Shown: positions 24,672 to 35,242 of the stretch, piece by piece
Layout of the letters: the number at the start of each line of letters is the position of its first letter
Position numbering within the stretch: position 1 is the stretch's first letter
Assembly (NCBI GenBank): GCA_051881895.1
Contig: JBJEQT010000098.1
Span: forward strand, 1-46,809
Reading direction: 5' to 3'
Origin: Oscillospiraceae bacterium
Lineage (GTDB): Bacteria > Bacillota > Clostridia > Oscillospirales > Ruminococcaceae
DNA: 46,809 nt
The notes under the pieces: model-generated
The model's input: only the letters and a program-made list of their open reading frames with translations
What the model was told of the DNA's origin: nothing
Databases searched by the model: none
Program-made: the position numbers and the translations under genes

Positions 24672-27089
24672 TTATTGGTCCGCCGCTTTGCCAAAAACCT
24701 GTTCTGCGTACCGGACCGTTTCCATCGCGTTTTTCGCGTAGTAATCCGCTCCGATCATATCCGCATACTCCTGGGTCAGCACCGCTCCGCCGACCACCAC
24801 TTTGCAGTCCGGTTTTTCGGCGCGAAGCAGCCGCGCTGTTTGTTCCATTGCGGGGACGGTGGTCGTCATCAAGGCAGACAGACCCACCAAGCGGATATCG
24901 TTCTGCAAGACGGCTTCCAGAATTTTTTCCGGCGGCACATCCCGTCCCAGGTCGATCACCCGATATCCATAGTTTTCCATCAGAACCTTGACGATATTTT
25001 TGCCGATGTCGTGGATATCCCCTTTCACCGTGGCAAGGATCACCGCCGGTCCTTGTTCCGACGCCGCAGGCATTGTCTTACGCACTTCGTCAAACGCGGC
25101 TTTTGCCGCCTCGGCGCTCATGAGAAGCTGCGGCAGGAAAACCGTTTTCTTCTCAAATCCCTGACCCACAATATCCAAAGCAGGAATGATCTGCTCGTTG
25201 ATGACCGCCAGGCCATCGGCATGCGCAAGCGCCTCTTGGGCGGCGCGGGAAGCTTCTTCCCGCAGTCCGCGCTCAATCGCGGCCTGCAGCCCGTCCTCTT
25301 TTTCAGGCAGGTCGCTTTTCGCCGGGGCCGATGAGCTGACCTGGGACACAAGATCCTGCGCGAAACCGATGTACCTCTGGCAATTGGGATCCTGGCCCGA
25401 CAGCGCCAGATAACAATGATACGCTTTTTGCATCTCCATCGAAAAAGGATTCATAATCGCCGCGTCCAGCCCCCGGGCCAACGCCATCGTGAAGAAAGAA
25501 GCCGTGACAAATTCCCGGTTCGGCAGGCCAAACGAAACGTTGGAAACGCCCAGCGAACAGCAAACGCCCAATTCCTTTTTTAACAGGCTGACCGTTTCCA
25601 GCGTGACGTTTGCCGCCTGGTTATCCGACGAGACCGTCATCGCCAGCGGATCGAAAATCAGATCTTCCGGACCGATGCCGTATTCCGCCGCCCGTGTTAA
25701 AATCCGCCGTGCAATTTCCAGCCGTTCCAAAGCCGTATTGGGGATACCGGATTCATCCAGCGTAAGGCACACAACCAGGCCGCCGTATTTTTGCACCAGC
25801 GGAAAGACCGCTTCCATGCTTTCCTCTTTGCCGTTTACCGAATTGAGCATCGGCTTTCCGTTATAGATGCGCATCGCCCGTTCCATCGCTTTCGGGTCGG
25901 ACGTATCCAACTGGAGCGGCAAACTGGTCACTGATTGCAGTTCCTTTACGCACTCGCTGAGCATCGCCGGTTCGTCGATCTCCGGCAAACCTACATTGAC
26001 ATCCAGCACCTCGGCGCCGTGTTCCTGCTGCGCAATCCCCTCTTTGAGAATATAGCCGATATCGTGCGCCCGCAGCGCCTCTTTGAATTTTTTCTTTCCG
26101 GTCGGGTTAATGCGTTCCCCAATCAGCACCGGCCCTTTTCCAAATTCCACCACCTGCGCATAGGAACTGATCACCGACCGTTTTTTTCTGGTCAGCGCAA
26201 CAGGGGTCACGCCGGCAGTGGCGGCGACCATTTTTTGGATGTACGCCGGCGTAGTGCCGCAGCATCCGCCGATTATCCGTGCGCCCTGTTCTGCCACCTG
26301 CTTCATAACCGCGGCAAAATGATCTTCATCCACATCGTAAACCGTCTTTCCATTCCGGCTGCGGGGCATGCCGGCATTGGGTTTGACCAGCAGCGGCAGG
26401 CTGGTGCTGGCGGACAGGCGCGGCAGAAGCTGCAGCATCTGATCCGGCCCCAGCGAACAGTTTATGCCCATCACATCGACCCGGAGGCCTTCCAGCAGGG
26501 CCGCCATCGCCTCCGGCGAAGCGCCGGTCATCAGCTTGGCGTTTTCATCATAAATATTGCTGACAAAAACAGGCAGATCGGCGTTTTCTTTTGCCGCCAA
26601 TACCGCCGCTTTTGTCTCATAAGCGTCATTCATCGTCTCGATCAGAATAAAATCGACGCCCTCTTTTGTACCGGCACGCACGACCTCGGCAAACAACTCT
26701 ACCGCCGTTTCAAACGGCAAGTCCCCCAGCGGCTCCAACATTCTCCCCAAAGGGCCGATATCCAACCCTACAAACCGGTTCATTTGTCCGCCCTGCGCCG
26801 TATCGCGCGCCGTTTTGGCGCAGCGAACAGCCGCCCTGACCACTTCATCCAAAACGGGAAGCCCGTTTTTTTCGCCAAATTTCAGGCTGTTCGCGCCAAA
26901 GGTATTGGTGAGGACCGCATGGCTCCCCGCCTCAAAATAAGTCCGCGCCAGCTCGGTGATCTTTTGCGGATGGGTAAGATTCCAAAGTTCCGGCAGTTCA
27001 CCCGGGACAAGGCCCATTGCCTGTAAGGATGTGCCGGTTCCGCCATCCAGATAAAACAGCCCGCTTTTTACACATTCCATCACATTCAC
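24672..27089 (-). CDS. metH: Cobalamin-dependent methionine synthase core (Hcy-binding, pterin-binding and B12-binding modules; no activation domain)
   Basis: Hcy domain with zinc cysteines (INCSLGP, IIGGCCGTTPAYI). A pterin-binding barrel. A B12-binding domain with DxHxxG (GDIHDIGKN). The protein ends right after the Rossmann B12 module. I prefer the GTG start at 27089, 9 nt after AGGAGG; ATG 27080 is the alternative. Confidence 0.9.
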   Translation of the reverse strand: MNVMECVKSGLFYLDGGTGTSLQAMGLVPGELPELWNLTHPQKITELARTYFEAGSHAVLTNTFGANSLKFGEKNGLPVLDEVVRAAVRCAKTARDTAQGGQMNRFVGLDIGPLGRMLEPLGDLPFETAVELFAEVVRAGTKEGVDFILIETMNDAYETKAAVLAAKENADLPVFVSNIYDENAKLMTGASPEAMAALLEGLRVDVMGINCSLGPDQMLQLLPRLSASTSLPLLVKPNAGMPRSRNGKTVYDVDEDHFAAVMKQVAEQGARIIGGCCGTTPAYIQKMVAATAGVTPVALTRKKRSVISSYAQVVEFGKGPVLIGERINPTGKKKFKEALRAHDIGYILKEGIAQQEHGAEVLDVNVGLPEIDEPAMLSECVKELQSVTSLPLQLDTSDPKAMERAMRIYNGKPMLNSVNGKEESMEAVFPLVQKYGGLVVCLTLDESGIPNTALERLEIARRILTRAAEYGIGPEDLIFDPLAMTVSSDNQAANVTLETVSLLKKELGVCCSLGVSNVSFGLPNREFVTASFFTMALARGLDAAIMNPFSMEMQKAYHCYLALSGQDPNCQRYIGFAQDLVSQVSSSAPAKSDLPEKEDGLQAAIERGLREEASRAAQEALAHADGLAVINEQIIPALDIVGQGFEKKTVFLPQLLMSAEAAKAAFDEVRKTMPAASEQGPAVILATVKGDIHDIGKNIVKVLMENYGYRVIDLGRDVPPEKILEAVLQNDIRLVGLSALMTTTVPAMEQTARLLRAEKPDCKVVVGGAVLTQEYADMIGADYYAKNAMETVRYAEQVFGKAADQ

Positions 27090-27102
27090 AGCAATCGACC
27101 TC

Positions 27103-27771
27103 CTATAATCGAAAAGCGCAGTCTTTTTTTGAACACGCCGAACAGTCATGAAACCGCATGGTACAACCGGTATGCCCCATCCCCACAATGGCCGAAACCG
27201 ATTTCTGGGGGATCATCAAAAGCGCATCGGACAAAACAATTCCGGCTTTCCGCTTACTGTCCAGCACTTCCAAAAGCTTTTTCTGAAACGCCAGCGGCAA
27301 ATCGCCATAGCCTGGGCTGAATCGTGGACGGAAGCGCAGATCGGGGTATTTTTCCTCCCATTCACTGCACAGCTGGTCGCAGAACGCCTCTATCGCCGCT
27401 GAGCCAATGGCGTCGAGCACCAGCGCCCTGGCGGGTGAAGTCACCGCCGCGCGGCGGCGCTGCAGATCAATCTGCGCGCCCAAAGTAGCCGCAAACAGGA
27501 TCGCTTTTTGGCACCCCTCCAGGTTTCGGGCCAGGCTGGCGCTTTCCACCTGCATGGCGCCAAAATCTATCACCTGATTCTCTGTAAAGACCGGCAGTTC
27601 CAGATAACACGCCTGGCAGCGAACCGCCAAGGAAAATTCGGGCAGGCACGCATCTATCAGCGCAGCCACCGCCGGATCTTCTTCTGCTCTTCCCATCCCC
27701 AGATAGCGTAAAATATTTTTCCGCGCAACGGGGGGAAGCGCCGCCGAAACGGAAATGACCGGGGCGGTCAT
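27103..27771 (-). CDS. Stand-alone methionine synthase reactivation (AdoMet-binding activation) domain protein
   Basis: 222 aa. It resembles the C-terminal activation module of MetH (RFRPRFSPGYGDLPL corresponds to the RxxPGY AdoMet-site motif). There is an extra Cys-rich tail CTMRFHDCSACSKKDCAF. The start overlaps the metF stop (ATGA). Confidence 0.7.
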   Translation of the reverse strand: MTAPVISVSAALPPVARKNILRYLGMGRAEEDPAVAALIDACLPEFSLAVRCQACYLELPVFTENQVIDFGAMQVESASLARNLEGCQKAILFAATLGAQIDLQRRRAAVTSPARALVLDAIGSAAIEAFCDQLCSEWEEKYPDLRFRPRFSPGYGDLPLAFQKKLLEVLDSKRKAGIVLSDALLMIPQKSVSAIVGMGHTGCTMRFHDCSACSKKDCAFRL

Positions 27772-28634
27772 TTTAAAATCTCCGAGAGATTGCTTTGAAC
27801 CTGCGCCGCTACCGACGCGTTATTCATCGAGTAAACATGGATCGCCGGTACATCGTTGGCCAGAAGGTCAATGATCTGCTCCGAGGCGTAGATAATCCCC
27901 GCCTGTTTCATTGCGGCCGGATTGCTGCCAAAACGGTCCAAAAGATACCGGAAACGCTGCGGCAGCGCTGTCCCCGAAAGTTCCACAATCCGCTTGATCT
28001 GCTTGGCATTTGTAACCGGCATAATACCTGCTACCACGGGAACGGTAATCCCCGCTTCCCGGACTTTATAAAGGAAATTATAATAAATATTATTGTCAAA
28101 GAACATTTGGGTGGTCAAAAATTCGCATCCGGCATCCACCTTTTCTTTCAGATGCGCGATGTCCTCCGTCTGATTTTTGGAGTCCGGATGGCTTTCCGGA
28201 TAACAAGCGCCGCCAATACAGAATCCACCGTAGCTTTTGATCTCCCGTACCAGTTCGCTCGCGTAATGGTAATACCAATTTTGGGCGGCAGGCGCATTGG
28301 GCGCGATATCGCCTCGCAGCGCCAGCACATTTTCGATGCCGGCGGCGCGCATGGCGGCCAGCTGCTTTTGCACCCCCTCATGCGAAGAGCTGATGCAGCT
28401 CAGATGCGCCAGCGTGGGGACATGGTATTTCTCCTGCAGGTTGGAAGAAATAGAGACGGTATAATCACTGGTCCCTCCTCCTGCGCCGTATGTCACGCTG
28501 ATAAAGTCCGGTGAAAGAGCCGCGATGTTTTCCGTTGCCGTTTGAATGCTCTGGTAATTGTCGCTGGTTTTCGGCGGGAAAACCTCAAAAGACAAACAGG
28601 GTTTCTCGGCCCGGATCAAATCGATTACTTTCAT
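27768..28634 (-). CDS. metF: 5,10-methylenetetrahydrofolate reductase
   Basis: 288 aa. N-terminal LSFEVFPPKT, then ISVTYGAGG and LALRGD motifs typical of MTHFR. Confidence 0.9.
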   Translation of the reverse strand: MKVIDLIRAEKPCLSFEVFPPKTSDNYQSIQTATENIAALSPDFISVTYGAGGGTSDYTVSISSNLQEKYHVPTLAHLSCISSSHEGVQKQLAAMRAAGIENVLALRGDIAPNAPAAQNWYYHYASELVREIKSYGGFCIGGACYPESHPDSKNQTEDIAHLKEKVDAGCEFLTTQMFFDNNIYYNFLYKVREAGITVPVVAGIMPVTNAKQIKRIVELSGTALPQRFRYLLDRFGSNPAAMKQAGIIYASEQIIDLLANDVPAIHVYSMNNASVAAQVQSNLSEILK

Positions 28635-28699
28635 GAAACATCATCCTTATCATTCAATTCAAAAAGATACAGCCTGCCGGCCGCAATCCAATGTTTTGT

Positions 28700-29860
28700 T
28701 TACCAACTGGGGACATAAGCTTTTACACCGCGCAGGCTGTTTACCGCTTTTGCCGTTGTTTCGACGATAAAATCGACCTGCTCTTCTGTGTTCTCCTCTC
28801 CAAAGGAAAGACGCAGCGCGCTTTTGGCCTGATCCGGCGTTCGGCCGATCGCCAGCAAAACATGGCTGGGTTCCAGCGAGCCCGACATGCAGGCAGAACC
28901 GGAAGAAGCGCAGATGCCAGCTTGATCCAGCAAAAAAAGAAGCGCTTCCGCCTCTACTCCTTCAAAGCAGACATTTACATTTCCGGGCAGCCGGCAAACC
29001 GGGTCCCCATTTAATATAGAATAGGGGATATTTCGCAGTCCGTCAATCGTTTTATCCCGCAAAGATGTCATTTTTTTCATATTTTCTTCCAGGTGCTCGC
29101 AGGCAAAATCGAAAGCCGCCGCCATCGAAACAACGCCCGGGACATTCTCCGTTCCGGCCCGCAGCCCTCTTTCCTGTCCGCCTCCGGTGATCATCGGTTC
29201 CAATTGGATCCCCTTTTGCACATACAGCGCTCCCACGCCTTTCGGGCCGTGAAATTTATGAGCCGAAAGGGACAGCATCCCGATTTGCTGGTCTTTCACG
29301 CAAATCGGCAAATGGCCCGCCGCTTGTACGGCGTCGGTGTGGAACAAAACCCCTTTCTCGCGGCATATTCTCCCGATTTCCGAAATGGGCTGGATGGTGC
29401 CGATCTCGTGGTTGGCGTACATGACAGATACCAGGCAGGTATCCGGGCGAATGGCTTCTTCCACCTGCCGGGCCGAAATGATTCCGTTTTCCGGAACCGG
29501 CAGCAGCGTGACGGAAAATCCTTTGGTCCGCAGCTTGTCCAGGGTGCGAAGAATCGCAGGGTGCTCAAAGGCGGTGGAAATCATATGCTTTTTCCCAATT
29601 TTCTCCCCCATCGCCGCCGCTGAAAAAACGGCCAGGTTATCCGCTTCGCTGCCGCCTGAAGTAAACAGGATCTCCCGCGGCTCGCATCCCAGGTTTTTTG
29701 CCATCTTCGCCCTGGCCTGTGCCAGCGCTTTCGCAGCGTCCCGCCCGGCGGCGTGCTGACTGGAAGGGTTTCCGTAAAAGCTGTCCAGATACGGCCCCAT
29801 CGCTTCCATCGCCGCCTTGTTCATCCGGGTGGTAGCCGCGTTATCCGCATACACAAACAT
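28700..29860 (-). CDS. Cysteine desulfurase (NifS/IscS class V aminotransferase)
   Basis: 386 aa. MFVYADNAATT, PLP-lysine motif SLSAHKFHGPKG, and the catalytic Cys loop SSGSACMSG. Confidence 0.9.
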   Translation of the reverse strand: MFVYADNAATTRMNKAAMEAMGPYLDSFYGNPSSQHAAGRDAAKALAQARAKMAKNLGCEPREILFTSGGSEADNLAVFSAAAMGEKIGKKHMISTAFEHPAILRTLDKLRTKGFSVTLLPVPENGIISARQVEEAIRPDTCLVSVMYANHEIGTIQPISEIGRICREKGVLFHTDAVQAAGHLPICVKDQQIGMLSLSAHKFHGPKGVGALYVQKGIQLEPMITGGGQERGLRAGTENVPGVVSMAAAFDFACEHLEENMKKMTSLRDKTIDGLRNIPYSILNGDPVCRLPGNVNVCFEGVEAEALLFLLDQAGICASSGSACMSGSLEPSHVLLAIGRTPDQAKSALRLSFGEENTEEQVDFIVETTAKAVNSLRGVKAYVPSW

Positions 29861-29882
29861 GCTCTTCTCCTTTTTCTTTCGC

Positions 29883-30782
29883 CTAGATTTCCCAATACCA
29901 CGGTTCTTCCTGGTTTTTACCCTGAACGGCTAGTTCCCGGTTTGGCACCATGACCTTCGTGTTCGCGGGAACCGACTCCGTGACAAAAGCGCTGCCGCCG
30001 ATGATGCTGTTTTCCCCAATGACGGTATTTCCGCCCAAAACAGACGCGTTGGCATAAACCGTCACATGATCCTTGACCGTCGGATGCCGTTTTACACCGG
30101 AAAGCTGCTGTCCTTTTCGGGTAGATAAAGCGCCCAGCGTCACCCCTTGGTACAGTTTAACATGGTCGCCGATTTCGGTCGTTTCACCAATGACGATTCC
30201 TGTGCCATGATCTATGGAAAAATACGATCCGATTTGCGCGCCGGCATGGATATCAATCCCCGTGCGGCTATGGGCGTATTCGGTCATAATGCGGGGAATC
30301 AGCGGCACCTTTTTGCAATACAGTTCATGGGCAACGCGGTAAACAAATATGGCAAACAGCCCCGGATAGGACAAAATGACTTCTGCTTTGCTCTGCGCGG
30401 CCGGATCCCCTTCAAAGATGGCCTGCACATCCATTTTCAGCTGCCGCTGTACGTCGGGCAGGCGGCTGAAAAATGCTTGGCATATCTGCTGCGTTTCCCG
30501 CCGGATCTCCTGTTCAGAAGCTGCCCCGGCGCGAAAGGTCAGCGCCGCGTACAGCTGCCGGTTCAGCTCATCTTTTATTTTCCGAAGCTTTTCCGCGGCA
30601 AAAGAAAGGTTCTGCCCTTCTTCCGGACAACCGCCGAAAAATCCGGGAAACAACATCCCTCTTAATTCCCGGATCATCCAAATGACCTTTTCCCGATCAG
30701 GGAAATGGCCCGGCAACTCCTTTTCCTGTTCAAAAAGGTCTGCCGCAATCTGCTCCAAATCATTTTCCGTCTGTTTGTGCAT
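29883..30782 (-). CDS. cysE: Serine O-acetyltransferase
   Basis: Left-handed beta-helix hexapeptide repeats (GAQIGSYFSIDHGTGIVIGETTEIGDHVKLYQGVTLG). I prefer ATG 30782 because GAGGAGGAG lies immediately upstream. The track start at 30800 has no RBS. Confidence 0.85.
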   Translation of the reverse strand: MHKQTENDLEQIAADLFEQEKELPGHFPDREKVIWMIRELRGMLFPGFFGGCPEEGQNLSFAAEKLRKIKDELNRQLYAALTFRAGAASEQEIRRETQQICQAFFSRLPDVQRQLKMDVQAIFEGDPAAQSKAEVILSYPGLFAIFVYRVAHELYCKKVPLIPRIMTEYAHSRTGIDIHAGAQIGSYFSIDHGTGIVIGETTEIGDHVKLYQGVTLGALSTRKGQQLSGVKRHPTVKDHVTVYANASVLGGNTVIGENSIIGGSAFVTESVPANTKVMVPNRELAVQGKNQEEPWYWEI

Positions 30783-30816
30783 ATTCTCCTCCTCGTCCAT
30801 TCTGCTTCAAGCCGTG

Positions 30817-31902
30817 CTACTGCGCCCGTTCAATGGTGCCTCCGCCGAGGACGGTGTCCCCGTCATACAATACAACCGACTGGCCCGGCGTAATCGCGCG
30901 CTGCGGCTGGTCAAAACGCACATGCAGGCGTCCGTCGTCCGACTGCCAGGCTTCGGCCGGCTGCTCCTGCTGGCGATAGCGGATCTTCGCACAGACCCGG
31001 ATGGCCTTATCCAAGCGCTCCCCCGAAATCAAATTGACCTCTTTCGCCGTCAGATAACTGCTGTAAAGCGATGTTTCCTCTCCTAACACCACCGTATTGG
31101 ACTGCGGGCAGATTCCGCAGACATACAGGGGCTTTCCAACGCTGAGCCCCAGCCCTTTTTTCTGTCCGATGGTGTAGCGCCCGATTCCCCTGTGCTGTCC
31201 CAGCACCGTTCCATCCGGCCGTACAAAATTTCCCGGTTCCATTGTTTTTCCGGTGTATCGTTCCAAAAAAGAGCCATAGTCCCCATCCGGGACAAAACAG
31301 ATATCCTGGCTTTCCCTTTTGGCCGCATTGTCAAGGCCGTTTTCCCTCGCGATTCTGCGCACCTCGCTTTTTTGCAGGCACCCCAAAGGAAAACGGGTAT
31401 GGGCCAGCTGTTCCTGGGTCATGGCGTACAGAACATAGCTTTGATCTTTGGCGGGATCCATTCCCTTTTTCAAAAGCCATTTGCCGGAAGTTTCCTCGCG
31501 TTCGATTCGGGCATAATGGCCTGTCACGACGACATCCATCTGCATCTGGCGCATCCGGTGGAACAATCTGTCGAATTTGATATAGCGGTTGCAGTCGATG
31601 CAGGGATTCGGCGTAAAACCCTGCTGATAGCTTTGGACAAAACGGGCAATGACCGTTTTTCTGAAATCATCGGAAAAACCGAAAACATAATGGGGGATTC
31701 CCAGCTGGAAGCAGACGTTTCGCGCATCCTCCACATCTTCCAAAGAACAGCAGGTCCGCTGTCGGCTTTTACCGATATCCTCATTTTCAAACAACTTCAT
31801 GGTCGCGCCGACACAGGTAAAGCCCTGTTTCTGCATCAGCAGCGCCGCTACAGAACTGTCAACGCCGCCGCTCATTGCGATAAGCGCCTTTTGATTTGCC
31901 AT
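30817..31902 (-). CDS. mnmA: tRNA 2-thiouridine(34) synthase MnmA
   Basis: PP-loop IAMSGGVDSSVAA and catalytic cysteines (NPCIDCN, DICF). ATG 31902 is preceded by GAAAGGGG. Confidence 0.9.
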   Translation of the reverse strand: MANQKALIAMSGGVDSSVAALLMQKQGFTCVGATMKLFENEDIGKSRQRTCCSLEDVEDARNVCFQLGIPHYVFGFSDDFRKTVIARFVQSYQQGFTPNPCIDCNRYIKFDRLFHRMRQMQMDVVVTGHYARIEREETSGKWLLKKGMDPAKDQSYVLYAMTQEQLAHTRFPLGCLQKSEVRRIARENGLDNAAKRESQDICFVPDGDYGSFLERYTGKTMEPGNFVRPDGTVLGQHRGIGRYTIGQKKGLGLSVGKPLYVCGICPQSNTVVLGEETSLYSSYLTAKEVNLISGERLDKAIRVCAKIRYRQQEQPAEAWQSDDGRLHVRFDQPQRAITPGQSVVLYDGDTVLGGGTIERAQ

Positions 31903-31982
31903 CTGTACCCCTTTCCCGCCCGCAGGCATGCTAAATGAAAAAGGCCCCCTCTCACCGCGTGCTCGGGAGCCTTTCCGATATT

Positions 31983-32912
31983 TTAATCTTCAAACAAGGG
32001 TGTGGATAAATAACGATCGCCGGTATCAGGCAGCAGAACGACAATTGCCTTTCCCCTGTTTTCCGGGCGTTTGGCCAATTCTGTCGCGGCCCACACCGCT
32101 GCGCCGGAAGAGATCCCGGTCAATACGCCGTCGGTTCGGGCAATTTCTCTTCCGGTGGCAAAAGCCGCTTCATTGTCCACCGGTATGATTTCATCATAAA
32201 TTTGGGTATTCAGCGTATCCGGCACAAAGCCCGCACCGATTCCCTGAATTTTATGCGCACCGGCGATTCCTTTGGAAAGTACCGGTGAATCCGCCGGCTC
32301 TACCGCCACCACTTTGACTGCGGGATTTTGGGATTTCAAATACTCTCCTACACCGGTCAGGGTCCCGCCGGTTCCGACGCCGGCCACGAAAATGTCGACC
32401 TTGCCCTGCGTGTCCCGCCAGATTTCCGGACCCGTCGTCTGCCGGTGTGCCTGCGGATTGGCGGGATTTTTAAACTGTCCCGGGATGAAACTGCCCGGCG
32501 TCTGACGCGCCAGTTCCTCCGCTTTTTCGATGGCGCCTTTCATTCCTTTGGCGCCCTCGGTCAGCACAATTTCGGCACCGTAAGCCTTCAGCAGGATGCG
32601 GCGTTCCACGCTCATCGTCTCCGGCATCGTCAAAATGACGCGGTAGCCCTTGGCGGCGGCGATTGCTGCCAGGCCAATCCCCGTATTGCCGCTGGTCGGT
32701 TCGATGATGACAGAATCCGGGCGAAGGGCGCCGTCGGATTCCGCTTTTTCAATCATCGCTTTTGCAATACGGTCTTTTACGCTTCCGGCTGGATTCAAAA
32801 ATTCCAGTTTGGCGTAAATTTTCGCTTCCAGCTTTTCTTTCTGCTCATAGCCGGTCAATTCCAGCAGCGGAGTATTTCCCACAAGTTCGGTGATTTTTTG
32901 ATAGATTGCCAT
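31983..32912 (-). CDS. cysK: Cysteine synthase A (O-acetylserine sulfhydrylase)
   Basis: 309 aa. PLP-lysine motif [11 protein letters not shown], then [10 protein letters not shown] and [10 protein letters not shown]. Confidence 0.95.
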
Positions 32913-33037
32913 GATAAGTTGCTCCTTTCCAATTTTCCTATCCTATTCATTTCTCTGCGAAAAGAGAACATCGACATCGTCTTCTAATAGGAGGATTCCA
33001 TGGAAAGAGCCGCTTTACAATAAAAACTGTCATACGC

Positions 33038-34348
33038 TTACTTTTGCACAGACGCTTCGAACGCCTGGTCCAGATCGTAAATGATATCGTTTACATGTTC
33101 CGTACCGATCGAAAGACGGATCGTATTCGGTTTGATTCCCTGATCCAGCAGTTCTTCGGGGCTGAGCTGGGAATGGGTCGTTGTCGCAGGATGGATGACC
33201 AGGCTTTTTACATCCGCAACGTTGGCCAACAAGGAAAAGACCTGCAGGCTGTCGATAAACCGGTGCGCTTCTTCCTGGCCTCCTTTGATCTCGAACGTAA
33301 AGATCGAACCGCCGCCGTTGGGGAAATATTTTTCATACAGCTCATGATCCGGATGATCCGGCAAGGACGGATGATTAACATGTTCCACCTGCGGATGATT
33401 TGCCAGATATTCCACTACTTTCTTGGTATTCTCCGCATGACGGTCCAGACGCAGAGAAAGCGTTTCTGTGCCCTGCAGCAGCAAAAATGCCGCGAAAGGA
33501 GAAATAGTGGCACCGGTATCCCGCAAAAGAATCGCCCGCACATAGGTGACAAAAGCGGCAGGGCCAACAGCATCTACAAAGGAGATTCCGTGATAGCTTG
33601 GGTTCGCGTCCGCGATCGGGGCATATTTGCCGCTGGCTTTCCAGTCAAACTTGCCGGAATCGACGATCACGCCGCCCAACGTTGTGCCGTGGCCGCCGAT
33701 AAATTTTGTGGCCGAATGGACCACAATATCCGCGCCATGTTCAATCGGCCGGACCCAATACGGTGTGCCAAAAGTATTGTCGATAACCAGCGGCAGACCG
33801 TGTTTATGTGCAATCGCGGCAATCGCGTCGATATCCGGGATATCGCTGTTGGGGTTGCCCAGCGTCTCGAGATAAACGGCCTTTGTATTGGGCTGGATGG
33901 CGTTTTCCAGCTCCTTTAGGTCATGGGCGTTGACAAAAGTCGTGCTGATGCCAAATTGCGGGAAAGTGTGAGCCAGCAAGTTAAACGTGCCGCCGTAGAT
34001 GGTTTTTTGCGCGACAATATGGTCGCCGTTTTGGGCCAGCGCCTGAATGGTATAGCTGATTGCGGCAGCACCGGAGGCGACTGCCAGCGCTGCAACGCCG
34101 CCCTCCAGGGCCGCAATGCGTTTTTCAAAAGCTTCCTGGGTAGAATTGGTCAGACGGCCGTAAATATTGCCGGCGTCGGACAATCCAAAGCGAGCCGCCG
34201 CATGGGCGGAGTTATGAAAAACATAGGATGTGGTGGCGTAAATCGGTACGGCGCGGGAGTCGGTGGCAGGGTCTGCTTGCTCCTGCCCTACATGAAGCTG
34301 CAACGTCTCAAACTGATATTGATGTTTTCCATTCAAAAAATCTGCCAT
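33038..34348 (-). CDS. metY: O-acetylhomoserine sulfhydrylase / aminocarboxypropyltransferase
   Basis: 436 aa in the Cys/Met-metabolism PLP family, with the lysine motif VHSATKFIGGHGT. RBS GAAGGAAAAG. Confidence 0.9.
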   Translation of the reverse strand: MADFLNGKHQYQFETLQLHVGQEQADPATDSRAVPIYATTSYVFHNSAHAAARFGLSDAGNIYGRLTNSTQEAFEKRIAALEGGVAALAVASGAAAISYTIQALAQNGDHIVAQKTIYGGTFNLLAHTFPQFGISTTFVNAHDLKELENAIQPNTKAVYLETLGNPNSDIPDIDAIAAIAHKHGLPLVIDNTFGTPYWVRPIEHGADIVVHSATKFIGGHGTTLGGVIVDSGKFDWKASGKYAPIADANPSYHGISFVDAVGPAAFVTYVRAILLRDTGATISPFAAFLLLQGTETLSLRLDRHAENTKKVVEYLANHPQVEHVNHPSLPDHPDHELYEKYFPNGGGSIFTFEIKGGQEEAHRFIDSLQVFSLLANVADVKSLVIHPATTTHSQLSPEELLDQGIKPNTIRLSIGTEHVNDIIYDLDQAFEASVQK

Positions 34349-34485
34349 TTTCTTTTCCTTCTTTCAAAAGCTTTTTGTCGTTTCATCTTATCTGCTCATC
34401 TTCGCCCTTTTACCGTCACATTCGATCATCCCACAGGGATTTTCGGAGTTTTTGCAAAGAATATCCGTTCATCCAAATGCCTCCT

Positions 34486-34522
34486 AAAAAACAAAAAAGC
34501 GGGAAAGCCTGCTGTTTCCCGC
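34486..34522 (-). terminator. Intrinsic terminator inside the metY leader (attenuator terminator)
   Basis: Minus strand GCGGGAAA (34522..34515), loop CAGCAGGC, TTTCCCGC (34506..34499), then TTTTTTGTTTTTT (34498..34486). It sits 29 nt after the leader-ORF stop and about 135 nt before the metY ATG. Confidence 0.8.
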
Positions 34523-34550
34523 TTACTTTGGTCATTGTGATTTCATCCGT

Positions 34551-34676
34551 TCAAAAACGTGTTTTCGAATCAGAAAAGAAGCTCTGAAATCCATCCAAGG
34601 CGCAGGAAATCGTGTACATGTTGCTGCACATGCACATACACATACACATTTTGCGGCCCGTCTGCAAAAAATACAT
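34551..34676 (-). CDS. Candidate attenuation leader peptide, 41 codons, Met/Cys-rich (MYFLQTGRKMCMCMCMCSNMYTISCALDGFQSFFSDSKTRF)
   Basis: Not in the ORF track because it is shorter than 60 aa. AAGGAG (34689..34684) is followed by 7 nt and ATG 34676, with stop TGA at 34553..34551. Codons 10-17 are ATG TGT ATG TGT ATG TGC ATG TGC. A consensus promoter lies upstream, and a terminator and the Met/Cys biosynthesis genes lie downstream. Confidence 0.6.
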   Translation of the reverse strand: MYFLQTGRKMCMCMCMCSNMYTISCALDGFQSFFSDSKTRF

Positions 34677-34723
34677 TGCGCTTCTCCTTTCTGATTTTCT
34701 TGTTTTCCTATTGGTTTACCAGG

Positions 34724-34752
34724 ATTATAGCATCCACCTATTCTTTTGTCAA
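34724..34752 (-). promoter_or_regulatory. Consensus sigma-A promoter of the metY leader/operon
   Basis: Minus strand TTGACA (34752..34747), 17-nt spacer, TGcTATAAT (extended -10; TATAAT at 34729..34724). Confidence 0.75.
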
Positions 34753-34770
34753 CAAGATTTTACTTTTTTC

Positions 34771-34799
34771 TTTACATAGATTTCCGATTGGTTTAATAT
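34771..34799 (+). promoter_or_regulatory. Probable promoter of the divergent Rrf2 regulator gene
   Basis: TTTACA (34771..34776), 17-nt spacer, TAATAT (34794..34799). It lies about 32 nt upstream of the ATG, back-to-back with the metY promoter, with the two -35 boxes 18 nt apart. Confidence 0.5.
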
Positions 34800-34831
34800 G
34801 TATAAAAGAACGTTCACGAAAGGGAAAGATT

Positions 34832-35242
34832 ATGAAAATATCCACCAAAGGGCGATACGCCCTGCGCATGATGATTGATTTGGCACAACAGCAAAAGGAG
34901 TCTGTCTTATCCTACATTCCTTTAAAGGATATCGCCTTTCGGCAGGGAATCGAAATCAAATATTTGGAGCAAATTGTGGCGCTTTTGAAAAAAGACGGGC
35001 TGATTCAAGGTGTGCGCGGCAGCAGCGGCGGATACCGTCTGACGAGGGAACCAAAGGAATACACCGTTCGGGAAATCCTTGAGGTAACGGAAGGCCGTCT
35101 CGCTCCCGTTGCCTGTTTGGATACCCCTGTCAATCTTTGTCCCCGCAAAGAACATTGCCCCACGCTGTCTTTTTGGGAAGACTTCGCTTCCTGCATCACT
35201 GATTTTTTGGAAAAATGGACGCTGCAGGACTTTTTGTCCTGA
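34832..35242 (+). CDS. Rrf2 family transcriptional regulator (IscR/CymR-like) with three-Cys cluster motif
   Basis: MKISTKGRYALRMMIDLA... winged HTH, then SSGGYRL. Cys ligand pattern is C-x7-C-x5-C (ACLDTPVNLCPRKEHC). RBS AAAGGGAAAG. The track ORF start at 34559 is a spurious upstream extension. Confidence 0.9.
   Translation: MKISTKGRYALRMMIDLAQQQKESVLSYIPLKDIAFRQGIEIKYLEQIVALLKKDGLIQGVRGSSGGYRLTREPKEYTVREILEVTEGRLAPVACLDTPVNLCPRKEHCPTLSFWEDFASCITDFLEKWTLQDFLS

Follow-up and report, generated by a model that had tools for sequence, protein, structure and literature searches.

A Met/Cys-codon leader ORF before a metY operon of an Oscillospiraceae bacterium: a candidate transcription attenuator and a related family of metY leader peptides in gut Clostridia

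Introduction

Contig JBJEQT010000098.1 of an Oscillospiraceae bacterium (assembly GCA_051881895.1; 46,809 nt, analysed over its full length and called the window here) carries on its minus strand an operon for the synthesis of Cys and Met which begins with metY. The leader of this operon includes a promoter, a 41-codon small open reading frame (ORF), sORF1, with eight consecutive alternating Met and Cys codons, and an intrinsic terminator. In this it resembles the classical attenuators (trpL, hisL, leuL, thrL and pheL), which also combine a leader ORF and its Shine-Dalgarno (SD) sequence, a run of end-product codons lying within a hairpin, and a terminator. We describe here this leader, its counterparts before metY in related genomes and a conserved family of upstream ORFs (uORFs) found just 5′ of the same gene.

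Such a leader is unexpected in Firmicutes, since Met and Cys genes are usually under S-box or T-box control there and since, in Bacillus-type species, RNA polymerase reportedly runs ahead of the ribosomes (PMC13323073). Indeed, clostridial Cys/Met genes have been reported to be controlled by T-boxes and S-boxes (PMC2940859). The ilv leader of Staphylococcus aureus is Leu-rich (PMC5794164) and a His leader has been predicted in bacilli (PMC2965389). In Actinobacteria, leader ORFs with Cys codons have been described (Seliverstov et al. 2005, PMC1262725) and for the leaderless polycysteine small ORFs (sORFs) of mycobacteria an effect at the level of translation has been shown (Canestrari et al., bioRxiv 10.1101/834739).

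Organization of the metY operon leader

The features of the leader and the operon that it precedes are as follows:

34724..34752, minus strand: sigma-70 promoter of the metY operon leader, TTGACA-17-TGcTATAAT (12/12 in a promoter scan, extended -10 TG)
34684..34689, minus strand: SD of sORF1, AAGGAG, with a 7-nt spacer to the ATG at 34676
34551..34676, minus strand: sORF1, 41-codon leader ORF, MYFLQTGRKMCMCMCMCSNMYTISCALDGFQSFFSDSKTRF, with TGA at 34553..34551
34626..34649, minus strand: eight consecutive alternating Met/Cys codons, (ATGTGY)4, the proposed control codons
34486..34524, minus strand: intrinsic terminator, a 10-bp stem (AAGCGGGAAA/UUUCCCGCUU) with an 8-nt loop, then UUUUGUUUUUU
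34416..34485, minus strand: SD2, AGGAGG (34485..34480), and sORF2 (34472..34416), MNGYSLQKLRKSLWDDRM, ending CGA ATG TGA
24672..34348, minus strand: operon metY, cysK, mnmA, cysE, a nifS/iscS-type cysteine desulfurase gene, metF, a 222-aa MetH-activation-like ORF and metH (NCBIfam assignments)

On the minus strand the promoter reads TTGACA (34752..34747), a 17-nt spacer and TGcTATAAT (34732..34724), and transcription is predicted to start at about 34717, some 41 nt 5′ of the sORF1 ATG. Met or Cys accounts for 11 of the 41 codons of sORF1, and the run itself reads ATG TGT ATG TGT ATG TGC ATG TGC (34649..34626). The terminator stem (34524..34497) is GC-rich, with a predicted energy of -14.3 kcal/mol and a U-run on its 3′ side; it lies 26 nt from the sORF1 stop codon and about 140 nt 5′ of metY. 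Promoter, SD, Met/Cys ORF and terminator are thus all present at, or within a few bases of, the coordinates given in the initial annotation, which had proposed an attenuator from the window sequence; its 11 Met or Cys codons, eight of them consecutive, and its strong terminator stand, while the gap of 29 nt that it gave between ORF and terminator is in fact 26 nt. The genes that it named (metY, cysK, cysE, metF and metH) are all there; it had omitted mnmA and the desulfurase gene, and had missed sORF2, a divergent Rrf2-family gene with its boxes and a hairpin, P1, formed around the Met/Cys repeat. At the distal end of the operon the MetH-activation-like ORF (27771..27103) overlaps the listed metH start (27188) by 86 nt on the minus strand, and the true start of metH is probably further downstream than listed.

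sORF1 is exceptional in composition. It reaches nine Met or Cys residues in 12, and the other ~435 small ATG-initiated ORFs on both strands of the window reach four at most. Tandem Repeats Finder (TRF) describes the run as a period-6 tandem repeat of 3.8 copies.

The absence of an S-box or T-box, noted initially, is borne out by Rfam scans: no S-box/SAM (S-adenosylmethionine) riboswitch, T-box or other Rfam family was found 5′ of metY in the window or in 60 related loci, and no match at gathering score occurs anywhere in the window. A permissive scan of 34250..34900 gave noise only (the best hit, L20_leader, at 21.7 bits against a cut-off of 58.7), and the window leader has no covariance-model match to the Rfam leader families (Trp_leader, His_leader, Leu_leader, Thr_leader and others). 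The 60 loci free of riboswitch and T-box include some in which no uORF was detected (e.g. L007, L010, L013-L015, L100-L110; L- and P-numbers are our labels for loci and small proteins). At the protein level, an NCBIfam scan of six leader peptides at E ≤ 10 assigned them to no family, and a word-index search with the 41-aa sORF1 peptide alone returned zero candidates; a profile built from five leader peptides did retrieve relatives, as described below.

Met/Cys-rich leaders precede metY in related loci

The comparison covers 80 genome and 80 metagenome loci from Oscillospiraceae, Lachnospiraceae, Faecalibacterium, some Treponema and others, with MetY proteins 81-89% identical to that of the window. 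An ORF was counted as Met/Cys-rich if it starts with an SD-preceded ATG and has at least five Met or Cys within 12 residues. Among the 149 distinct metY leaders, 19 have such an ORF on the sense strand; no reverse-strand ORF exceeds three Met or Cys. In five lineages (the window, L036, L027, L021 and L113, a set which excludes the long sORF2 forms considered below) a promoter, an SD, a separate Met/Cys-rich ORF and an intrinsic terminator are followed by metY. The TTGACA/TGnTAnnnT arrangement of the window promoter is also found 5′ of the other four leaders, whose peptides are:

L036: MRKIYEFACMMEKMCACMCMCMLCAVNFSVRVPSRA
L027: MNKLYSENLNMAMWMVMYMCAMYMRFVVFNSDKLRLDNYSICSF
L021: MKMYSMLCMMCICEYASFAVPSDSAE
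L113: MTAKSMLMSVSMCMMCMRFVIPV

The Met/Cys-rich leaders of L027, L021 and L113 are not hexamer repeats. As the five peptides are otherwise unalike, what they share has the signature of control codons. In all five the Met/Cys run lies within a local hairpin, and 14-42 nt separate the stop codon from the terminator stem. The window, L036, L027 and L021 have a short sORF2 past the terminator; in L113 metY comes directly.

The five-peptide profile retrieved 20 public small proteins. The L036-type family is represented above all by P0128 (MRKIYGQTGMMNKMCACMCMCMLCAVNLSVRVPLRA), present on 586 contigs, and in five of the six places shown the order is leader, ~300 nt, metY, metA. In L174 (3501-4687) the P0128 leader ORF is followed by a PIN-domain gene and not by metY, probably as a result of rearrangement. 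The leader/metY/metA order is unchanged for the length variants P0139 and P0140; the leaders P0131, P0138 and P0124 also precede metY, and the contig of P0137 stops before any downstream gene. Within the P0128 family residues 6-9 and 12-13 drift (GQTG, EFAC, GRIS, ELIG) and the run MM..MC.CMCMCM.C persists. The family has natural alleles of 34, 36 and 38 aa, in steps of exactly one Met-Cys unit (6 nt, TGCATG). Such one-unit alleles are seen in the otherwise near-identical leaders L173, L179, L180, L182 and L183, some 60-90 nt past the leader ATG, and they could tune a regulatory set-point. L186 and L187 have no sORF2 and, like L113, carry the Met/Cys module alone, directly before metY; for L186 and L187 this implies that the module works on its own. 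The window peptide and the P0128 family have QTG..K-MC.CMCMC..CA in common, and on this resemblance the window sORF1 is probably homologous to the family.

RNAalifold supports three helices in an alignment of eight L036-family members. The first is a long hairpin around the whole ORF, with pair-preserving changes only and with the Met/Cys run at its apex: the SD GGAG pairs with UUCC, CGCGCC with GGUGCG, and codons 1-5 with codons 26-29. The second is an intermediate hairpin with UA<->CG changes and the third is the terminator, which has a compensatory AU<->GC pair. The sequence past the run is conserved at the nucleotide level. Comparison of the aligned leaders shows the run and the terminator to be under selection in these relatives.

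Potential secondary structures of the window leader

Three further features of the window leader concern its folding. All structure tests reported here are thermodynamic, and shuffle or permutation tests on related sequences overstate independence.

34598..34659, minus strand: hairpin P1, 26 bp, -24.0 kcal/mol, with codons 7-17 of sORF1 as its 5′ strand and apex
34594..34610, minus strand: candidate antiterminator strand AUUUCCUGCGCCUUGGA (codons 23-28), within the 3′ strand of P1
34570..34582, minus strand: pyrimidine tract GCUUCUUUUCUGA (codons 32-36), which pairs with the sORF1 SD region 34696..34680

The TG/CA-rich repeat had initially been regarded as fully explained by its coding pattern. 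That view does not hold, as the repeat also forms the P1 hairpin and is a slippage-prone hexamer. The candidate antiterminator AUUUCCUGCGCCUUGGA is complementary to CCAAAGUAAGCGGGAAA, which comprises the terminator 5′ arm and the bases preceding it. The predicted duplex in the window has an energy of -11.8 kcal/mol against the arm alone and -15.8 kcal/mol against the extended target, values matched by 2.2% (of 500 dinucleotide shuffles) and 5.2% of shuffles, respectively. Support for a trp-style antiterminator in the window is thus marginal, and for the L036 family no consistent antiterminator was found by eye or by duplex search. The pyrimidine tract at 34582..34570 was considered as an alternative antiterminator and rejected, since its duplex with the terminator arm reaches only -5.6 kcal/mol.

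In an ensemble model in which a ribosome masks part of the leader, a stall on the run leaves a partner available for the terminator 5′ arm in the window, L027 and L021. Further progress of the modelled ribosome, or its arrival at the stop codon, removes this partner, with a shift of 3-8 kcal/mol.

The pairing between the SD region and the pyrimidine tract is predicted at -17.2 to -18.8 kcal/mol in the window, where 3.2% of shuffles do as well, and sequestration by the leader of its own SD beats chance over the five lineages (Fisher p = 0.0026). In the trp leader, too, the leader's own ribosome binding site (RBS) pairs with a distal segment.

A conserved family of uORFs adjoining metY

A uORF is found just 5′ of metY in at least 68 loci, in 46 distinct nucleotide versions. 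Its ATG lies exactly 17 codons before an invariant CGA-ATG, and its peptide follows the pattern M-x3-[FW]-x2-L-[LVI]-[RH]-x-N-[FY]-R-x-G-R-M (for example L005:2281-2397 and L117:1263-1394, among loci L001-L160). An SD precedes 44 of the 46 versions. Column entropies summed over codon positions 1, 2 and 3 are 13.8, 13.4 and 23.0, respectively, and point to conservation of the coding type. All six Arg codons are found at Arg14 and all four Gly codons at Gly16. At Arg17, 43 of the 46 versions have CGA, a codon which makes up 2% of Arg codons in metY genes of the clade and 7% in the genes of the window. Met18 is followed by a stop codon, by a short Cys-rich tail (C, CR, CRCCI, YLCCC, RPCCLFC) or by a long tail. 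In the long tail of the Faecalibacterium type the CGA-AUG-UGY unit recurs two or three times (...CGRM-C...CARM-C-TRM and stop).

A profile search identified 149 public small proteins of this family, one member of which is found in 11,020 collection blocks. None of the 149 has a Pfam domain and their names are limited to 'hypothetical/uncharacterised protein [Faecalibacterium prausnitzii]'. Thousands of gut-metagenome contigs carry a member, among them contigs of F. prausnitzii. In three unrelated neighbourhoods the uORF lies 5′ of and adjoining a gene for a ~427-aa Cys_Met_Meta_PP (MetY) protein, with a ThiF gene between the two in L171.

In the long forms an intrinsic terminator lies just before metY, and its 5′ arm has a complement two codons past Met18 (UCC CGG GCN and variants). 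The pairs covary: UCCCGGAC with GUCCGGGA, UCCCGGGC with GCCCGGGA, GACCGGGCA with UGCCCGGUG, and CCUGGGCUGAA with UUCAGGCCCGGG. Over loci L005, L012, L037, L060, L081, L086, L117, L068, L128 and L140, cognate duplexes average -21.1 kcal/mol and non-cognate ones -17.8 kcal/mol, and none of 5000 permutations reaches the cognate mean. This cognate covariation argues that the long forms are real terminator/antiterminator attenuators whose antiterminator strand lies inside a translated ORF; as judged by covariation, the metY leaders of the clade are shown to include ORF-overlapping attenuators. Attenuation mediated by the ribosome would accordingly be the rule for metY in this clade, which favours such a reading of sORF1. 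In short forms codons 19-22, just past Met18, constitute an anti-SD for metY: CCUUUCUGU pairs with ACAGAAAGG in L021, AUGUACCUC with GAGGUAUAU in L059, and GCCUCU with AGAGGU in L022. This complementarity suggests that short-form leaders are under translational control. The spacing from the family uORF to the downstream helix is fixed at 6 nt.

Other structures were observed in these leaders. The long-form ORF has a second segment, AUGGCCGGG (UGCCCUC in the Faecalibacterium type), which is able to pair with the first; Cys codons come after it. Many long-form leaders have a 5′-proximal hairpin just past the -10 box (L005:2230-2262, L012, L081, L086, L075) whose arms differ and stay complementary (ACCAAC/GUUGGU, AAGCAA/UUGCUU, ACCCUA/UAGGGU, ACCUAC/GUAGGU); it might stabilise the mRNA 5′ end or act as a palindromic operator. 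In L004 (2355-2375) the end of the uORF, AUCGAAUGUGUUGAUU, forms a perfect 16-bp complement with AAUCAACACAUUCGAU, a partner ~110 nt downstream and ~20 nt 5′ of the metY SD, so the CGA-AUG-UG core itself can join a regulatory helix. In L153, ~150 nt before metY, the terminator 3′ arm and U-run are tandemly duplicated (GCTGCCGGGCATTTTTGCTGCCGGGCATTTTT).

The window sORF2 (AGGAGG-7-ATG, 67 nt before metY) matches this family in its position, its strong SD, its exact length of 18 codons and its terminal CGA-ATG-stop. The family-invariant residues N12, F/Y13, R14 and G16 are replaced by S12, L13, W14 and D16, and no clear anti-SD for metY is seen in sORF2 of the window. From these substitutions, sORF2 appears to be a diverged, possibly decaying, member.

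A divergent Rrf2-family regulator

The operon is adjoined by a divergently oriented regulator gene, with the following features in the intergenic region:

34832..35242, plus strand: Rrf2-family regulator gene (IscR/CymR-like, 136 aa; TIGR00738 at 1e-35)
34771..34799, plus strand: weak Rrf2 promoter, TTTACA-17-TAATAT
34781..34795, minus strand: box 1, TAAACCAATCGGAAA, over the weak plus-strand Rrf2 promoter
34704..34718, minus strand: box 2, TAAACCAATAGGAAA, over the predicted metY-leader transcription start

The Rrf2 protein scores under the equivalog cut-offs of both IscR and CymR. The 15-nt box, TAAACCAATMGGAAA, has exactly two copies in the window, both within the metY/Rrf2 intergenic region, and from their position alone they are candidate Rrf2 operators. 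The motif ATMGGAA is presumably part of the Bacillus subtilis CymR operator, a likeness taken as a lead only. Rrf2 genes divergent from and adjoining metY are found in many related loci, including some metY loci without a uORF; a simple regular-expression search for the TAAACCAATMGGAAA box in related loci identified no shared operator.

A model for control of the metY operon

We consider it probable that sORF1 and its terminator constitute a ribosome-mediated transcription attenuator reading both Met and Cys codons, layered with Rrf2 control and with the diverged uORF. In this model transcription would start at ~34717 and a ribosome would load at AAGGAG/ATG 34676. When Met-tRNA and Cys-tRNA are plentiful, the ribosome would clear the run and P1 (34659..34598) would re-form behind it, holding 34610..34594; the terminator (34524..34486) would then fold and transcription end before metY. 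When either charged tRNA is scarce, the ribosome would stall on the AUG/UGY run and P1 would stay open. Its freed 3′ strand would pair with the terminator 5′ arm, and RNA polymerase would read into sORF2 and the operon. The scheme is of the 1:2 / 2:3 / 3:4 type, in which the stalled ribosome would free strand 2 to pair with strand 3. Pairing of the SD with the late pyrimidine tract would probably restrict translation to the first ribosome, and P1 could double as a polymerase pause hairpin. Control would thus have three layers: the sORF1 attenuator, Rrf2 acting through boxes on both promoters, and the 18-codon uORF between terminator and metY. We infer the translation of sORF1 and stalling on it in this organism, the identity of the antiterminator and the direction of the response.

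Several observations weigh against this model. The trp-type reading first proposed for the leader has its ORF, control codons and terminator, but the antiterminator is only marginal: over the five lineages its duplexes fall short of significance (Fisher p = 0.155 with the arm alone as target, 0.06 with the extended one), and L036 and L113 show no stall effect in the ribosome-mask model. The sORF1 stop codon lies 16 codons past the candidate antiterminator strand, unlike that of trpL. In equilibrium folding with a ribosome mask the terminator belongs to the minimum-energy structure at almost every position; since it wins at equilibrium, the switch must be kinetic and equilibrium models cannot decide. 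The whole-leader fold is no more stable than shuffled sequences (z = -0.99). The hexamer repeat could have arisen by slippage without selection, so that the window sequence alone cannot tell the two apart and comparison with other genomes is the real test. Here the conservation expected initially is found in part: Met/Cys ORFs with an SD recur before metY in five lineages, but sORF1 is missing from the loci of the closest MetY orthologues (up to 89% identity), and 89%, the closest MetY identity in the genome and metagenome scans, is too distant for a fine-scale comparison of sORF1. Finally, RNA polymerase outruns ribosomes in Bacillus-type Firmicutes (PMC13323073, PMC7858274), which disfavours the mechanism unless the polymerase pauses. 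In B. subtilis, however, ribosome-dependent attenuation of vmlR is helped by polymerase pausing (PMC9226507), and the Leu-rich leader of S. aureus works (PMC5794164).

Alternative explanations

Control might lie instead at initiation, with the divergent Rrf2 (CymR/IscR-like) repressor acting on the two TAAACCAATMGGAAA boxes and with sORF1 and the terminator as minor contributors or relics. The regulator gene directly adjoins the operon, the only two box copies in the window each cover a core promoter, nifS and mnmA are typical Fe-S and thiolation genes, and several metY loci (e.g. L020, L023, L026, L033) lack a uORF altogether and have a divergent Rrf2 gene. We nevertheless judge this unlikely as the whole explanation: left unregulated, a strong terminator 140 nt before metY would prevent expression, the box pattern is derived from its own two copies and was not found by regular expression in other loci, and its likeness to CymR sites is tentative. 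Rrf2 control is moreover compatible with attenuation, as class B uORF leaders and divergent Rrf2 genes coexist in L037, L060, L063 and L065. It is also rather improbable that the TG/CA hairpin and terminator form a non-coding RNA switch sensing a ligand or protein, the reading frame being incidental to a self-complementary AUG/UGC repeat. Such repeats are indeed self-complementary (CAUG, UGCA, GCAUGC) and in each of the five leaders they lie at the tip of a stable hairpin, and the nucleotide-level conservation past the run in the L036 family would fit. Yet every example has a good, well-placed SD and starts from an ATG in frame with the Met and Cys codons, no indel of the run shifts the frame, L027 and L021 are rich in Met and Cys without hexamer repeats, and Rfam matches are zero with an empty reverse-strand control.

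Little credence can be given to a scheme in which sORF1 is translated and works by another logic, a terminating ribosome suppressing termination or the ORF acting post-transcriptionally, through mRNA stability or through the translation of sORF2 and metY. The distance of 14-42 nt from stop codon to terminator stem in the five leaders would suit it, as would the short uORFs of relatives which overlap the metY anti-SD (L021, L059, L022) and the action of mycobacterial Cys-sORFs on translation (bioRxiv 10.1101/834739); a terminator just 3′ of a translated gene is reported to be repressed by the ribosome (PMC4824070). A terminating ribosome would, however, lower expression on shortage of Met or Cys, the opposite of what a biosynthetic operon needs; the window gap of 26 nt exceeds its reach; and the identity of the codons as Met and Cys is left unexplained. 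That the (ATGTGY)4 run is simply a neutral or phase-variable microsatellite without a sensing role appears very improbable. TRF does call a period of 6 and one-unit natural alleles occur in the L036 family, but there are only 3.8 imperfect copies, changes of unit number never shift the frame and so provide no on/off switch, and Met/Cys runs recur before metY, with Met/Cys enrichment present in the non-repeat leaders L021, L027 and L113.

A broader proposal concerns the uORF family, and we put it forward only tentatively, as a possibility: that metY in a broad set of gut Clostridia (including F. prausnitzii) and some Treponema is controlled by undescribed sensory leader peptides in place of riboswitches, with an 18-codon core, the window being a two-stage tandem. 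The nascent core peptide, F-x2-L-L-R-x-N-F-R-x-G-R(CGA)-M, would program a ribosome pause at the rare CGA-AUG, with an antiterminator helix or an anti-SD exactly 6 nt further on. Its signal might be Met-tRNA or Cys-tRNA, or Met or SAM directly, as for plant CGS1. The derived copy in the window would have swapped the arrest motif for an expandable Met-Cys repeat governing the terminator, with a relic of the core uORF next to it.

Relation to known systems and significance

A literature search found no description of a Met-codon or mixed Met/Cys leader, a metY uORF or an arrest peptide for Met biosynthesis; it was limited to one library and is not proof, and it agrees with the initial annotation, which knew of no attenuator interleaving the two amino acids. 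Compared with the classical attenuators, the window leader differs in its interleaved Met and Cys codons, the late position of its stop codon, a second uORF after the terminator, an antiterminator which is only marginally detectable, and its Clostridia host. The actinobacterial Cys leaders also place a Cys-rich uORF before cysteine-metabolism genes, with ribosome stalling proposed or shown as the sensor. Those ORFs are leaderless, with runs of Cys only and without an intrinsic terminator, and free a sequestered RBS or possibly act through Rho, whereas the window, set against the mycobacterial sORFs, has a canonical SD, a start ~41 nt downstream of the transcription start, Met/Cys alternation and an intrinsic terminator. 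S-boxes and T-boxes occupy the niche (Met/Cys genes) and have the output (premature termination in the leader) proposed for the window leader, which has no Rfam match; where they rely on an aptamer or on tRNA binding by the leader, its proposed sensor is the translating ribosome.

The uORF family can be compared with arrest peptides (TnaC, SecM, MifM, SpeFL and others) and with the MTO1 peptide of plant CGS1, which responds to SAM. In sequence the family is like them in its fixed length, its C-proximal N-F-R-x-G-R-M, the rare CGA before the last sense codon and the fixed 6-nt helix spacing; it would share with CGS1 a place at the committed step of Met synthesis. It has no known sequence likeness to the named peptides, and the window copy lacks the invariant residues.

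Attenuation by leader peptides is textbook knowledge; the reading of Met codons, or of two amino acids interleaved in one run, would be new as far as that library shows. The window leader most likely belongs to an undescribed family of Met/Cys leaders in gut Clostridia which replaces the usual riboswitches. If the model is true, a single ribosome-based sensor would integrate both sulfur amino acids for an operon that makes both, and the length variants of one Met-Cys unit would provide an evolvable set-point. The conserved metY uORF family is the more novel by-product of this work and may matter more than sORF1 itself. It would provide a tractable system for the study of nascent-peptide or hungry-codon sensing in anaerobes and would improve the annotation of sulfur-amino-acid regulation in the gut microbiome.

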